Shown in pieces: positions 12,968-18,434 of a DNA stretch of 64,000 nt. Below the pieces are notes generated by a model. That model was not told where the DNA came from and ran no database searches. It saw only the letters and a program-made list of their open reading frames with translations. The stretch covers positions 1-64,000 of IMG/VR virus record IMGVR_UViG_3300021400_000885. The stretch is one strand, 5' to 3'. The translations under genes and the position numbers were made by a program. Source of the stretch: a virus. Its lineage: Duplodnaviria > Caudoviricetes. Each line of letters begins with the position of its first letter. The first letter of the stretch is position 1.

Positions 12968-13069
12968 AGTTCAATGTTTTAGAATCTTTGTAGCTTATTG
13001 ATATATGTATAGTTATGGATAAACCTTAAAAAGCTTCCTTATCTTATCTAGTAATAGTTTTACCCACAA

Positions 13070-13250
13070 TAAATTTTTTGAAATTTTTTTGAGTTAGGGA
13101 AAGGAGAAATTTTTTTTTTAAAATTATTTGTGGGAGGGGGGACATAAAATAAAATTTATTTTTTTTTTGATTTGGGAGAGCAGGACATAATACACCCAAC
13201 ACCCCGGAGGGTGTAACCCCGTTGGGGTTATCCCCCCGTGTTGTTTGGTG
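13070..13250. other. Strand-switch region; candidate genome terminus/origin
   Basis: T-tracts followed by repeated tggga..ggacataa, GC-rich hairpins (taacccc-gtt-ggggtta); lies between the divergent late and early arms. Confidence 0.4.
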
Positions 13251-13462
13251 TTTGCCCTGTTCACTCTCTTTTGTCAGACTTTGGAATGAGAAGAGTAGAA
13301 CTCTTTGAAATGTTCTGGAAAGGTGCAGCGAGATGCAGTGCCCTCAATACATGAAGAAGTATTGTGACAAGTACGAACAGAGTAGGAGTGTTTGAAACCC
13401 TCAAACCATTCAGCATGGTGCTGACAGCCTGACCAGCTGTGAATTGGTCTGAGTATAGAATT

Positions 13463-13789
13463 ATGGCAGCAACAATGTCCAACAATTCTTCTTTCACTGG
13501 CAAGTTCATCAACAATGAGCGTCCTGCAATCACCTTTTTCTTTGCCCAGCATGGTGGGCACAGTGGCTCCCGCAAGGTAGTTACAAGTGATGGGGAAACT
13601 CGCATCATGTTCTCTTGCATGGATGGCACCGCTGTCTGGGCAAGTGAGAAAGCCACGGAGAAACTCCTCAACAAGACCCGTCCTGCAAAGGAACTTGTTG
13701 TTGGTGAGTGGCGCGATGATGAAACTGGAAAGACTGGGTTCACCGCTTATTATGAGGGTGGTGAGGAGATTGAAATCTCCTTTGAATAA
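13463..13789 (+). CDS. First early gene, hypothetical protein
   Basis: GC-richer ORF followed by a strong terminator; start taken at MAATM. Confidence 0.65.
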   Translation: MAATMSNNSSFTGKFINNERPAITFFFAQHGGHSGSRKVVTSDGETRIMFSCMDGTAVWASEKATEKLLNKTRPAKELVVGEWRDDETGKTGFTAYYEGGEEIEISFE

Positions 13790-13800
13790 GCCCTTGAAAG

Positions 13801-13833
13801 GACTCCTGATAGTGTTATCAGGAGTCTTTTTTT
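13801..13833 (+). terminator. Intrinsic terminator
   Basis: gactcctgata-gtgt-tatcaggagtc followed by a T-run. Confidence 0.8.
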
Positions 13834-14178
13834 AAGGCGAAATTTGGCTGTGAAATTGGGGAGCAAAAGTGTTGTAAGTATTTAATTTTCAACACTTTAA
13901 ATGTGCCAAAACAGGGCACAATGAACGCTCCCAATTTCACGCCAATTTCAACAAAAACCCAATTTCCGCTCCCCAACAAAAATGTAGCGGTTTTTTGGAT
14001 TCCTCAAAACACCTTGCCACATGGAATGGTACAAAGTAACACTACAAAACTTAGTGTCTTTAGAGACCTTTTCAACCAAAATTTTGGCACCAAATGCCAT
14101 CATAGCACTAAATTATGCCGAAGAAAAGTACAATAATACCGATTATTTGGCAATTCAAGCAGAAATCATAAACACTTA

Positions 14179-14526
14179 AACCTTTAGGCAGTATGAATGC
14201 GAAACAACAAGCCTTAAGAGACATGCGAAAAGCAGGGTTATCCACATCATTCTTCTATTATGAAGAAGCAATTTGTGGGAGAAGAGTGTGGGATGGGAGA
14301 TGCATGAATGGGGGCAAAAGAGCCAAAAAGAGTAACTAATCCTCTTAAATTGATTAGTAGGAACACCTATCCTTGGGGAAACCCTAAAATAAGGCGTGGT
14401 GAAGCACACGTTATAACGCAGGGCAATCAGCATTCCTACCATAAGCTGATACTCATAGTGGTCTGGATTACCAGCATTGGAGTATAAATTTCAACTACTG
14501 CTTGGGCAACCAAGTTTCAAAAGGTT
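14179..14526 (+). ncRNA. Candidate ~350-nt structured RNA
   Basis: End-closing helices aaccttt/aaaggtt, ggcagta/tactgct, gaatgc/gcattc; GNRA hairpins ggg-gaaa-ccc and cttgg-gcaa-ccaag; no plus-strand ORF. Confidence 0.55.
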
Positions 14527-14654
14527 CTTTTCGTCCTTTTCTTACACAAGTAAAAGGGCTTTTATATATCTATCACTCTCAGTAGTATAAATAGTGAGAG
14601 AAGGTTCAGCTACGAATACTAAGTAATAAAATTATAGAGCATTTATTGATGAAC

Positions 14655-14716
14655 TTTATATGTCTTGTTCATCTTTTTCACTTTAGTTCTGATGTGAATC
14701 ACAACTAAAGATTTTT
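14655..14716 (+). ncRNA. Candidate antisense small RNA with UGUGAA hairpin
   Basis: tgtcttgttCATctttttca (antisense to tgaaaaagATGAACAAGACA), then hairpin 14681-14710 with TGTGAA loop and T-run. Confidence 0.45.
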
Positions 14717-14740
14717 ATAAAATAGCACTTACATTATAGT

Positions 14741-14929
14741 ATGATTTCTGTTGATATTCTTCGCATCATAGAATTAGAAGAAGATGCTGAGTGTGGGCTT
14801 GAGGAGCTTTATACTCAATGGAGAGAAGAAGAACTTGCTTGTGAAAGAGATTTTTATAAGTGGTGGGACAATTGTGGTAAGTTCATCATTTCTGGAATAG
14901 CAGAGACTATTCAACAAAGAGTAAAATAA
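14741..14929 (+). CDS. Hypothetical acidic protein
   Basis: 62-aa ORF with AT-rich leader. Confidence 0.5.
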   Translation: MISVDILRIIELEEDAECGLEELYTQWREEELACERDFYKWWDNCGKFIISGIAETIQQRVK

Positions 14930-14946
14930 AATTACTCTTTTTTAAA

Positions 14947-15466
14947 CTCCTAATTACAACAAACCTTTACGTGGTTTAGGAGATAAGTATCCTTCGGGAG
15001 AAACTAATTGTTGTACGGCAGGCTTCTTGTCGTTAGGATAAACCAGCAATGGGATAAAGTGACTGTCTCTCAACAGGGAGATAGTTGCGCTATTTGATTT
15101 CATCAAGTAGTCTGTAAGAAAGCCAGATTATGCAAAGCAGTTCATGGTGTATCATCGGGCAGATGAGATAGTGAATTGCGGAGGGCTTGACCAGCTCTCC
15201 TTGAGGAGTAATCCTGACAAACATAACTGCTTAAGGACCAAAAAGGATTAGCCATCCATATAGTTCTTATGATGAAAGCTTTTAGACCTATGTCTTGGCG
15301 GACACAATTGAATTAGCCATTCAATTGATATCAGAAATGGTAGGTTTGTATAGTTAGTAAAGTGAAAGTCTTGGCGGATAAGTAGCATAACCGTGTTGAT
15401 GGGTAAACTCCTCAAAAGGGAGCATTCCATTCAAGCACAACCACACGGTTAGTCAGGTCATCTGTT
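14947..15466 (+). ncRNA. Candidate large ornate RNA (~520 nt; ROOL/GOLLD-like class)
   Basis: 5' pseudoknot (tacaacaa/ttgttgta), C(UUCG)G and GNRA loops, many helices, two gtc-ttggcg-ga hairpins; no ORF. Confidence 0.65.
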
Positions 15467-15509
15467 ATTTTAATTTATTATTCATGATGTATAATTTATT
15501 AATTTAGCA

Positions 15510-15830
15510 AAGAGTGTTGTGCACACTTGATAACAACAGAGTTATCCTTCTGTAATATGGAGGCATCATGCGCTCGCAAGGCAATTGATGAAGTGAAACA
15601 AGTATCCAAGTTCTAACTGGGGGCACCCAGCTAACCCGCAAGGAGTTCTGGAGAAAGGAGTATCTTATATAATCAAGTGTAGGAGTTGCGGAACTTGTTA
15701 ATCCGTCTCTGTGTTGCCTACCCCAAAAGGGTGTGTTCTAGTCAGGTAAACTGGTGAAAATGGCAATTATATGGGTCATGACTCAGCCCATATGCAAATT
15801 CTGAACGAAGTGAAATTTTTTCAGAGTTCA
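15510..15830 (+). ncRNA. Candidate ~300-nt structured RNA
   Basis: acacttgat/atcaagtgt long-range helix, crossing acagag/ctctgt pairing, GCAA/GUAA loops; no ORF. Confidence 0.55.
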
Positions 15831-15834
15831 AATT

Positions 15835-15918
15835 TACAACATTGTTTCGCAAAGCATATTGTTTATTTGTTTATGGTTAGGTAAATGGAGTAACTATTAT
15901 AGCTCCATTTACCTTTTA
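15835..15918 (+). ncRNA. Candidate antisense small RNA ending in a terminator
   Basis: aagCATattgtttatttgtttatgg followed by the 12-bp stem aggtaaatggag/ctccatttacct and Ts. Confidence 0.45.
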
Positions 15919-15950
15919 CTTAAAAAGAAATCAATTAAAACAGCCCTGAT

Positions 15951-16301
15951 ATGAAAAGATTTATTATTTCACTCCTTTGTGGAGTCATCTGTGTTCTTAG
16001 TGGTGCTAAGGACAGTCCTTGGAAAGAAATCCAAACAGTTATTCTTCCTCAAAGTGTAACTATCTATGAAGGTGTTACACGTTCTGGAAATGCTAAATAC
16101 TGGATTGAAATTGAGAACATCAAAGTCTCAGTTGCCCCTACAAATGTAGCTAAATTTCAAAGGGGAGAAACTAAGCTAGAGCTTGTAAAATGGCAGAATA
16201 TGGAAACTAAAAAGTTTAAATATTCTACAAGGCAGGTAAAAAGCTCAGGTTCATCCACAAGGAAAGAGGAAAAGAATATTGACTTGACCAGCCTCTTTTG
16301 A
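15951..16301 (+). CDS. Secreted/periplasmic hypothetical protein
   Basis: Signal peptide MKRFIISLLCGVICVLSGA; terminator at 16332-16367. Confidence 0.6.
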   Translation: MKRFIISLLCGVICVLSGAKDSPWKEIQTVILPQSVTIYEGVTRSGNAKYWIEIENIKVSVAPTNVAKFQRGETKLELVKWQNMETKKFKYSTRQVKSSGSSTRKEEKNIDLTSLF

Positions 16302-16381
16302 TAATGCTGCCTTAAATATTTATGCTAACACGAATCAGGATAGTCTTTTTGTCCTGATTCTTTTTTACAGTTGATTTACAT

Positions 16382-16792
16382 ATGGGGAATTTTGAATATT
16401 ATGGAGTATTTGTTGATAGGTCAACCAGAGAGAAAATACTCAAGCTTGTACAAGATAAAATACCTGAAGGATGGATTGCTTATGCAGAACACATAACTAT
16501 GTTGCATAGAACCCATAAAAATCATTATATTGAGAAATACTTAGCTGCTTTCCTTGGGGAGAGAATGTTCTTTAAGATTATTGGATGGGGAATAAGTGAC
16601 AGAGCTTTTGCTGTTATTACTGATTGTCCTAGTGAAAATAAAGTATCACACATGACAATTGCAGTTGCTCCAGGTGCAAAACCTGTTGAGTCTAACAATA
16701 TTACAGATTGGCACTATGAGCAAATAGGTGATATTTTTCACGGTTATCTTAGTGTACAACCTCATGTAAAGTATAAAAATTATGAGAAATAA
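16382..16792 (+). CDS. 2H phosphoesterase family protein
   Basis: Two HxT motifs (HITM, HMTI), KPVESN; adjacent to the tRNA cluster. Confidence 0.7.
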   Translation: MGNFEYYGVFVDRSTREKILKLVQDKIPEGWIAYAEHITMLHRTHKNHYIEKYLAAFLGERMFFKIIGWGISDRAFAVITDCPSENKVSHMTIAVAPGAKPVESNNITDWHYEQIGDIFHGYLSVQPHVKYKNYEK

Positions 16793-16817
16793 GTAGTACA
16801 ATTTAACTTATTTTATC

Positions 16818-16825
16818 TATATTTG
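16818..16825 (+). promoter_or_regulatory. Bacteroidetes -7 promoter element for the tRNA/sRNA cluster
   Basis: TATATTTG ending 4 nt before the 16830 stem. Confidence 0.6.
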
Positions 16826-16829
16826 CATA

Positions 16830-16915
16830 GCCCCAATTACAGAGTTTCTGTCAATAATTACGTAGTTAGAAGGCCATAAGAATAAGTTAATGTATTTCAA
16901 TCAAGTAATTGGGGC
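16830..16915 (+). ncRNA. Candidate panhandle antisense RNA
   Basis: 11-bp stem gccccaattac/gtaattggggc enclosing ggcCATaagaataagttaatg; ends 5 nt before tRNA-Gln. Confidence 0.55.
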
Positions 16916-16920
16916 ATTAT

Positions 16921-16992
16921 TGAGGTATGGTGTAATTGGCAACACTAGGGATTTTGGTTCCCTCATTTGAGGTTCGAGTCCTCATACCTCAA
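16921..16992 (+). tRNA. tRNA-Gln(TTG)
   Basis: Cloverleaf; anticodon arm aggga-ttTTGgt-tccct; GGTTCGAGTCC T-arm. Confidence 0.92.
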
Positions 16993-17006
16993 CAACATTA
17001 ACTTTG

Positions 17007-17060
17007 GGGATACTCAAATTATGTTAAACATGATACTGAATAAAACCATTTGGGTATCCC
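17007..17060 (+). ncRNA. Candidate panhandle antisense RNA
   Basis: gggatactcaaat/atttgggtatccc stem enclosing aaaCATgatactgaataaaacc. Confidence 0.45.
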
Positions 17061-17097
17061 TTTAATTAGAACATTAACTATTTAAACACATAAAGCC

Positions 17098-17259
17098 ATG
17101 CTAACAATCAAAATGAAACAAGGAACAACACTCCTAGCTGCATCTTCCACTCTTGAGGAAGTACAGAGAAAAGCACTGAGTTATCAGTGCAAGAATGCTA
17201 AACAACCTTATGTTAGAAAAGACATATTTATTTCAATAAACGGAAAAGAATCATTTTAA
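17098..17259 (+). CDS. Small hypothetical protein (53 aa)
   Basis: MLTIKMKQG... ORF with A-rich leader; below the ORF-track cutoff. Confidence 0.5.
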   Translation: MLTIKMKQGTTLLAASSTLEEVQRKALSYQCKNAKQPYVRKDIFISINGKESF

Positions 17260-17260
17260 T

Positions 17261-17557
17261 ATGGATGCAATATTTATCATATTTTGCTATGCTTTTATGT
17301 TTGCTTGCTTGGCAATTCCAATATACAAACTCATAGACAGACGTAACAAGCAAAAGCAAATTGAAGAATCTTCAAAAGAGATAATCAAGACCACTTACAT
17401 ATACACAGATGGGAAATGTGAATATGAGCTTTATCTTAAACCTGCATCAAAAGCAGTATTTTATGTAAGAAATAAAGTAAGTAATGGCTATTCCTACAAA
17501 GTGTATATTCAAGGAGACCTAAAGAATACAGTCTTAAAAGCTTATGGACTGATATAA
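17261..17557 (+). CDS. Membrane-anchored hypothetical protein
   Basis: N-terminal TM segment. Confidence 0.55.
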   Translation: MDAIFIIFCYAFMFACLAIPIYKLIDRRNKQKQIEESSKEIIKTTYIYTDGKCEYELYLKPASKAVFYVRNKVSNGYSYKVYIQGDLKNTVLKAYGLI

Positions 17558-17564
17558 TAATCCT

Positions 17565-17639
17565 GCCCTCCTAGTATAAAGGTTATTACAGATGATTTGT
17601 AATCTTCAAATAGCTGTTCAACTCAGCTGGGGGGCTCCA
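17565..17639 (+). tRNA. tRNA-Thr(TGT)
   Basis: Cloverleaf; anticodon loop ttTGTaa; encoded CCA. Confidence 0.85.
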
Positions 17640-17709
17640 AGCAGTTTAAATGGATATAATAAAGGTTGTTTATGTTTATTTTTCGTTTCAGGGCACATTT
17701 AAACTGCTT
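17639..17709 (+). ncRNA. Panhandle RNA filling the Thr-Ile spacer
   Basis: Perfect 14-bp stem aagcagtttaaatg/catttaaactgctt enclosing a U-rich loop (no CAT). Confidence 0.5.
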
Positions 17710-17713
17710 ATTT

Positions 17714-17787
17714 AGTGGCGAAGCTTAATGAGTATAAGCACCAGTCTTATAAACTGGAGATATTGGGTGCAATTCCCAAGGCCACTA
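17714..17787 (+). tRNA. tRNA-Ile(TAT)
   Basis: Anticodon arm ccagt-ctTATaa-actgg; atypical T-loop (GTGCAAT). Confidence 0.8.
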
Positions 17788-17789
17788 CA

Positions 17790-17873
17790 GGTTACTGTAC
17801 AACATGCTGTAACCCATGAAGTTTTACTTTTTGTACATTAAGTGTACATACTGTTGTGAAATATTATGTACAC
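17790..17873 (+). ncRNA. Candidate antisense RNA with UGUGAA hairpin filling the Ile-Arg spacer
   Basis: aaccCATgaagttttactttttg, then gtgtacata..TGTGAA..tatgtacac hairpin. Confidence 0.55.
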
Positions 17874-17877
17874 ACAC

Positions 17878-17949
17878 TCCTCCATAGTTCAAGGGATAGA
17901 ACAGCAGTCTTCTAAACTGTCAATATGTGTTCGAGTCACATTGGAGGAA
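17878..17949 (+). tRNA. tRNA-Arg(TCT)
   Basis: Cloverleaf; anticodon loop ctTCTaa. Confidence 0.9.
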
Positions 17950-17980
17950 CTAATAATTAACAATTAAAAACATTAACATT

Positions 17981-18349
17981 ATGGCACTTAAAGTAAGTAT
18001 TACCTCAACAAAGTTTACTACAATTGGTAAGAATGTAGTATGTACAATTGCTACAACTATAAAGAATGACAACCCTTTGCCTTCAGAACCAGCTTATCCA
18101 TTCCTCATAAAAGTATTTACAGGTGAGGCTAAATACAATGAAGAAGATAAGTATGATTACAAGAAAGGTAGAGCAATTGCCCTTGCCAAAGCTGAAAGAG
18201 CATCTTACAAATACTGGAAGGAATTTCTTAAGAAATTGATGGATAAATACACAAGAGGGATTGCTCTTTGTACTCCATTGTATGGCAAATGCAGTGAAGT
18301 CATTGCACACAATACATTATTTATTGATGATTTAGTATCAAATAAATAA
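17981..18349 (+). CDS. Conserved phage hypothetical protein
   Basis: GEAKYNEEDKYDYKKGRAIA motif of a type common in phage proteins. Confidence 0.6.
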   Translation: MALKVSITSTKFTTIGKNVVCTIATTIKNDNPLPSEPAYPFLIKVFTGEAKYNEEDKYDYKKGRAIALAKAERASYKYWKEFLKKLMDKYTRGIALCTPLYGKCSEVIAHNTLFIDDLVSNK

Positions 18350-18358
18350 TTAGCTCAT

Positions 18359-18433
18359 CGGGGTGTAGTTCAGTTGGTAGAATGCCTGGTTTGGGACCAG
18401 GAGGTTGCGCATGTTCGAGTCATGTCACCCCGA
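18359..18433 (+). tRNA. tRNA-Pro(TGG)
   Basis: Cloverleaf; cctgg-ttTGGga-ccagg. Confidence 0.92.
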
Positions 18434-18434
18434 C

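Follow-up and report, generated by a model that had tools for sequence, protein, structure and literature searches.

The question raised by this locus is what kind of RNA is encoded at positions 14947-15466 of the window, i.e., the 64,000-nt stretch of phage DNA that was analysed. An earlier sequence-only reading had seen here a large ornate RNA of the cage-forming kind beside tRNA genes in a Bacteroidales phage, and had proposed either a ROOL-like RNA or a new class, ending at 15466 and followed by an AT-rich intergenic spacer and a separate "third RNA" at 15510-15830. ROOL is an octameric, rumen-derived cage RNA. GOLLD RNA (Rfam RF02032), reportedly described by Weinberg et al. in 2009, belongs to our knowledge to the very small number of natural RNAs for which cages without protein are known. 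Our results make it very likely that a crAss-like phage here encodes a single RNA of the GOLLD family, ~845 nt long, of which 14947-15466 represents the 5' domain together with the first hairpin of the 3' domain.

To identify known RNA families, the region 14400-16100 was scanned with Rfam models with E-value reporting (E<=10). The GOLLD model RF02032, which represents only the conserved 3' region of the family, matched positions 15391-15789 with all of its 416 positions, at 76.1 bits and an E-value of 1.7e-19, and against the whole 103.9-kb phage record the 3' domain was matched with an E-value of 2.5e-21. ROOL, OLE and HEARO gave no match in 14400-16100 even at E<=10. The score of 76.1 bits is half of the RF02032 gathering score of 150 bits, and standard Rfam annotation therefore misses the GOLLD of this phage; Rfam at gathering scores returned tRNAs only for the whole window, again with no ROOL match. 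The first hairpin of the RF02032 model is the taaccgtg/cacggtta helix, in which TAACCGTG at 15388-95 pairs with CACGGTTA at 15444-51 and which lies inside the region flagged earlier, and the long unpaired A/U-rich stretch of the model aligns to 15461-15520. According to this alignment, the flagged region is what sits upstream of the GOLLD 3' domain. The RNA thus does not end at 15466 but continues to ~15791, the presumed intergenic spacer is the GOLLD variable linker, and the "third RNA" is the 3' half of the same molecule. Judged by its sequence, the RNA is a divergent, sub-threshold GOLLD and neither ROOL nor a new class. The two-domain GOLLD layout was found as well (~845 nt, with a 5' region of lower conservation and a linker that varies), and so was the phage-borne, tRNA-adjacent context expected of the family. 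Kretsch et al. (2025; PMC12286853) accepted E<=1e-5 as cut-off for GOLLD.

The elements of the RNA and the neighbouring tRNA genes are the following:

14947 to ~15791, + strand: whole RNA, very likely of the GOLLD family (5' domain, linker, 3' domain; ~845 nt), based on the RF02032 match, the homologue layout, the HMM and an RNA-library contig
14947-15015, + strand: 5' extension with hairpin, loop pseudoknot and UUCG hairpin; compensatory changes in homologues L071, L072, L067, L084 and L077
14947-53/14976-82, + strand: 5' hairpin CTCCTAA/TTAGGAG, covarying in the close sub-clade
14955-62/15008-15, + strand: pseudoknot of the 5' hairpin loop TACAACAA with TTGTTGTA, covarying in the close sub-clade
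14990-99, + strand: UUCG hairpin with C(UUCG)G at 14992-97, covarying in the close sub-clade
15016-32, + strand: hairpin H1; 93% of cells paired, compensatory change in 4/5 pairs
15022-25/15120-23, + strand: PK1, pairing of the H1 loop; 93% of cells paired, compensatory change in 3/4 pairs
15038-61, + strand: junction motif of AUAAA, GNRA hairpin (15043-52) and AUAAAGUG, invariant in 23/23 sequences
15059-66/15081-88, + strand: helix H3; 96.5% of cells paired, 5 pairs with compensatory change
15089-93/15107-11, + strand: helix H4; 88.7% of cells paired, 5 pairs with compensatory change
15124-15229, + strand: multi-branch arm closed by H5, holding H6, the GGGCA-loop hairpin, H7 and the GUAA hairpin; inner helices 80-97% paired
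15139-45/15171-77, + strand: helix H6, within the multi-branch arm
15153-65, + strand: GGGCA-loop hairpin, within the multi-branch arm
15180-15200, + strand: hairpin H7, every pair with compensatory changes
15204-15, + strand: GUAA hairpin AGGA-GTAA-TCCT, every pair with compensatory changes
15188-92/15456-60, + strand: PK2, H7 loop UGACC with GGUCA at the start of the linker; 23/23 sequences
15233-68, + strand: GCCA-loop arm, with loop 15251-54 as a KL1 partner; helix 96.7% of cells paired
15285-15346, + strand: arm closed by H10; H10 95% of cells paired
15291-15304, + strand: hairpin with loop UUGGCG (KL2 partner), within the H10 arm
15305-27, + strand: hairpin with loop UUAGCCA (KL2 partner), within the H10 arm
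15331-40, + strand: GAAA hairpin H13, within the H10 arm
15368-79, + strand: hairpin H14, with loop UGGC at 15372-75 as second KL1 partner; 94% paired, compensatory change in 4/4 pairs
15388-15451, + strand: first hairpin of the GOLLD 3' domain (RF02032 model positions 1-60), its helices included in the 141-pair test
15391-15789, + strand: conserved GOLLD 3' domain (RF02032 match)
15461-15520, + strand: A/U-rich variable linker, aligned with the part of the Rfam model that is A/U-rich and unpaired; 42-137 nt in homologues
16921-18434, + strand: tRNA gene cluster, 1.1 kb downstream of the RNA

All motifs listed by the sequence-only reading were present at their positions when the segments were printed and read, among them two copies each of TTAGCCAT (at 15248 and 15313) and GTCTTGGCGGA (at 15292 and 15368). 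H14 stands 9 nt before the 3' domain, and the first 3'-domain hairpin holds an invariant CAAAAG loop at 15413-18. Folding of the region was strand-specific, with z = -4.19 on the + strand, where 0/100 shuffles were as good, versus z = -1.72 on the - strand. The + strand of the flagged region contained no ORF of at least 40 aa, and on the - strand only ORFs of 44-60 aa occurred.

To obtain homologues, the invariant 5' motif and a relaxed form of it were used as probes against viral and metagenome collections. Twenty-four distinct full-length RNAs of 797-972 nt were recovered, which share a common layout in that the spacing from the 5' motif to the GOLLD 3' domain downstream of it is fixed, and both domains were detected in the homologues by nhmmer. 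Their 3' domains scored 54-103 bits with Rfam, none reaching the 150-bit gathering score. Identity to the window RNA ranged from 77% down to 45% with the helices maintained, and divergence proceeds at a similar pace in both domains; one further copy (L006) was 99.8% identical and therefore uninformative. A search with RF02032 over 44 related crAss-like records, the first pass of which missed two known carriers, yielded one more carrier, the more distant crAss-like phage G018, which has a GOLLD match of 102.9 bits and upstream of it shares an invariant 21-nt motif with window positions 15041-61. An HMM built without the window sequence found 15016-15387 on the + strand with an E-value of 1e-62 as its sole match in the 64 kb. 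The RNA and three diverse homologues gave no blastn match among 50,697 GenBank phage records, and no cultured phage with this GOLLD clade was thus found among GenBank phages at blastn sensitivity. Seven matches to the 5' motif in 185,579 prokaryote genomes were motif-only and were taken as chance matches. In the homologue L106, a complete tRNA (56.7 bits; L106:10520-10593, minus strand) was located inside the linker, which is 137 nt long there and lies within the GOLLD match at L106:10166-10683. A tRNA within the linker is a known feature of the GOLLD family.

Covariation was analysed on 23 homologous sequences. Of the 65 pairs that RNAalifold predicted, 53 had compensatory changes, and a column-pair scan also recovered pseudoknots. 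An explicit structure of 141 pairs in 29 helices, including all pairings of the sequence-only reading, was then scored on the 23 homologues. Pairing was observed in 79.8% of cells, as compared to 60.1% for shuffled columns and 39-45% for slid partners; the covariation score was 0.457, versus 0.159 for shuffled columns and 0.092-0.162 for slid partners, and was reached by 0/500 shuffles. Changes on both sides that preserve pairing occurred in 111/141 pairs. H1, PK1, H3, H6, H7, the GUAA hairpin, KL1, H10, H13 and H14 were 93-97% paired, and H5, with poor MAFFT alignment, was 45% paired. The helices of the 3' domain covary in the 23 homologues, including the pseudoknot 15523-31/15672-80 and 15536-41/15707-12. 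The predicted helices are hence kept, and nearly all of the pairings proposed earlier are backed by compensatory changes in the ~24 homologues. The 5' extension (14947-15015) is variable across the wider family and the 5'-terminal 70 nt are clade-specific; in L084, AUUGAGA/UCUCAAU replaces UACAACA/UGUUGUA of the 5' hairpin-loop pseudoknot, and double changes in the extension recur in an RNA contig of run X13.

Between clades, MAFFT misaligns H5, the 15233-68 arm, KL2 and PK2, which results in low paired percentages, and PK2 and the two loop-loop pairs KL1 and KL2 were re-tested sequence by sequence with permutation controls. The long-range pairing proposed between the loop at 15188 and 15456 (PK2) proved to have at least 4 Watson-Crick pairs in 23/23 sequences, in ~10 sequence versions and with 0/2000 permutations as good. 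PK2 joins a loop of the 5' domain to the stretch after the first 3'-domain hairpin, indicating that the two halves belong to one molecule or one assembly. The suggestion that gcca loops pair with tggc loops was borne out as well, as both GCCA/UGGC loop pairs covary. KL1 (15251-54 with 15372-75) was found in 23/23 sequences, with 14/2000 permutations as good, and occurs as GUCA/UGAC in L088, ACCA/UGGU in L090 and GCAA/UUGC in L106. For KL2 (15296-99 with 15316-19), 1/2000 permutations was as good, and the versions GCCA/UGGC, ACCA/UGGU, AACCA/UGGUU and UAGC/GCUA were observed, the order of the two hairpins being swapped in L052, L079 and L083. KL2 lies within an insertion that is present in most members of the rumen/gut-type clade; nine homologues are without it. 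The 5' domain thus adopts a multi-branched fold that contains, in addition to KL1 and KL2 as its two covarying loop-loop pairs, three pairings of pseudoknot type.

We compared the 5' domain with that of GOLLD env-38, using short motifs and the order of the loops as given in the supplement of PMC12286853 rather than an alignment; the GOLLD alignment in that supplement, as stored, comprises the 3' end only. In this work, env-38 is a 14-mer cage of D7 symmetry determined by cryo-EM, with caps made of the 5' domains, a 5' region at 1-420, a 3' region at 421-833 and a disordered linker at 497-538. Its 5' domain opens with an H1-like hairpin, AUAAA, a GNRA (GAAA) hairpin and GAUAAAGUG, i.e., with the invariant motif of the window RNA, and GGCAnnUGAGAUA follows further along. 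In this motif of env-38, the A-runs are engaged in ribose zippers, and the GNRA adenines reach across to another subunit as bridge B1. Bridge B4 of env-38 is an inter-subunit kissing loop between a hairpin just before the 3' domain, like H14, and a mid-domain loop, like the window loop at 15251. B5, another inter-subunit contact, is made by the loops GUGGUG and UACCAG, which are identical in their letters to KL2 in homologue L084. The chain order B4a, B5a, B5b, B4b of env-38 equals the order KL1a, KL2a, KL2b, KL1b of the window RNA. By this homology to B4 and B5, KL1 and KL2 are probably contacts between RNA copies.

Further likeness to GOLLD is seen in the overall build of ~800-870 nt with 5' domain, A/U-rich variable linker and conserved 3' domain, in the full-length match to the 3' model, the CAAAAG loop, the GNRA hairpin and the 5' junction motif that contains it, and in the phage-borne location near tRNA genes with a relative that carries a tRNA in the linker. 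With ROOL the window RNA has in common that it is a large ornate phage RNA near tRNA genes from a rumen/gut habitat, with a kissing-loop cage architecture that is predicted here. However, the halves of ROOL are intertwined, whereas the domains of the window RNA are separate, as in GOLLD. The window RNA differs from env-38 by the additional pseudoknotted 5' extension of ~70 nt. PK2 is absent among the legible env-38 contacts of PMC12286853, where bridge B2 (daisy-chain loop) is the contact of the loop in the corresponding position. In the window phage, KL1 and KL2 share identical letters (GCCA/UGGC).

By analogy with env-38 (PMC12286853), a closed shell would be built from copies of the RNA alone, without protein. 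Its two caps would consist of the 5' domains and be held through kissing-loop contacts, with KL1 in the role of B4 and KL2 in that of B5, and the GNRA loop within the invariant motif of the junction may dock on the 3' domain of a neighbouring copy (like B1). The CAAAAG loop would make an A-minor bridge (like B6), and the linker would face the interior of the cage. In the homologues, KL1 and KL2 are conserved, as are the GNRA and CAAAAG loops. The neighbouring tRNA cluster is in keeping with a published proposal in which the role of the RNA is linked to translation or tRNA while the phage grows lytically. As a more speculative and rather doubtful extension, the crAss-like GOLLD clade might be a structurally distinct variant, with the 5' extension, with PK2 replacing the inner-ring contact and, in the window phage, with cap loops that could cross-pair. 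If this were the case, a different subunit number or a tethered linker would be possible, and with it a different arrangement of cargo.

With regard to expression, the stretch is present in nine metatranscriptome runs, all sampled from animal gut or bovine material, and four runs from four studies were compared over 13500-17500. Contigs from these RNA libraries, which give neither strand nor ends and may include DNA carry-over, cover the RNA, and one of them of 787 nt (14981-15767) runs through 5' domain, linker and 3' domain. Variant contigs showed paired, helix-keeping changes at 14990/91 with 14998/99 and at 15311 with 15321. No RNA contig of the four runs lay on 13900-14950 or 15790-17500, where missing cover does not mean that the flanks are silent. 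At 13500-13858, a region of overlapping small ORFs on both strands, RNA contigs occurred in two studies (X3, X9), which may reflect another abundant transcript. A scan for sigma-70 promoters and terminators gave no more candidates than in shuffled sequence, Bacteroidetes-type and phage promoters being outside the scope of the scan; the one "terminator" called inside the RNA was helix H3. Directly before the first base of the RNA, at 14919-14945, a hairpin AGAGTAA/TTACTCT followed by a T-run resembles a terminator of the 62-aa ORF at 14741-14929, and a promoter of the GOLLD RNA is therefore not obvious. Downstream of the GOLLD 3' end, within 15792-15915, lie a hairpin TCTGAA...TTCAGA (~15809-15834) and, ~100 nt past this end, a long terminator-like hairpin followed by a T-run (15879-15912).

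Against this background, other explanations of the locus were considered. The 520-nt region could be an independent RNA, new or ROOL-like, next to a separate RNA similar to the 3' part of GOLLD, as the A/U-rich stretch 15461-15520 has the look of a spacer between genes, coverage by the Rfam model is limited to 15391-15789 and the 5'-terminal 70 nt are clade-specific. However, ROOL did not match at E<=10, the two halves co-occur at fixed spacing in 24/24 full-length homologues, the beginning of the putative spacer is joined through PK2 to a loop of the 5' part, the first helix of the Rfam model falls inside the 520-nt region, and a single RNA contig crosses both halves; moreover, env-38, a single molecule, bears the same 5' motif. 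We regard two separate RNAs as highly improbable. Slightly less probable still is that the RNA belongs to the small genes and the tRNA cluster downstream of it, either as their long structured leader or as a precursor that is processed, and acts as cis regulator or processing scaffold and not as a free cage RNA. The downstream ORFs and tRNAs are on the same strand, no clear sigma-70 promoter or terminator brackets the RNA, and a hairpin with T-run follows ~100 nt past its 3' end, but among the homologues the downstream genes differ while the RNA persists, and the conserved loop-loop pairs together with the solved structure of the family point to a self-contained particle. In addition, the RNA contigs end near 15767-15782 and not in the next gene, which is a weak hint in the same direction.

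Next to no probability remains for a non-functional RNA, i.e., for chance pairings or for a region that serves minus-strand small proteins of 44-60 aa: three minus-strand ORFs of this size do overlap the region, but the fold signal is specific for the + strand, 111 of the 141 pairs have pair-keeping changes on both sides, and helices are maintained down to 45% identity. Thus, a single GOLLD-family RNA is the explanation that we prefer by far.

The host group named by the sequence-only reading agrees with the phage proteins: the portal protein of the window phage shares ~55% identity with its counterparts in crAss-like phages of Bacteroides, which places the phage in this Bacteroidales-infecting group. 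crAss-like phages are a major group of gut and rumen phages. A portal homologue was present in 5/5 near-complete phage records with this GOLLD clade at 20-54% identity, two of them being distant (20-24%). tRNAs 1-2 kb downstream of GOLLD were also found in L054, L058, L059, L098 and L106. We found no paper mentioning GOLLD together with crAss or with a term beginning with Bacteroid. Placing a divergent GOLLD clade in crAss-like phages widens the reach of the family, the members of this clade being hidden by the catalogue threshold, and adds new covariation support for 5'-domain contacts that apparently match B4 and B5 of env-38 (PMC12286853) by position and chain order. The finding leaves the nature of GOLLD as known unchanged.

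Several other elements were noted on GOLLD-carrying contigs and related phages. Among matches to self-cleaving ribozymes, one to Pistol (L056:1434-1498; 42.1 bits, cut-off 34.5) lies ~400 nt downstream of GOLLD, and a Hatchet match (L103:9177-9379; 55.4 bits, cut-off 51) ~1.1 kb upstream of it. In L093, a GOLLD-carrying crAss-like contig, a Hammerhead III match near GOLLD (2074-2132) scored 43.4 bits, under the cut-off of 48.5, and a weak match to permuted tmRNA was obtained at 13034-13294 (39.3 bits, cut-off 47). In-frame TAG codons occurred in portal genes, with 21 in G018:C1:5559-7922, 7 in G061:C1:67156-69510 and 9 in G062:C1:5358-6413, which suggests TAG recoding in these three crAss-like phages. 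The portal gene of the window phage is open under the standard code.
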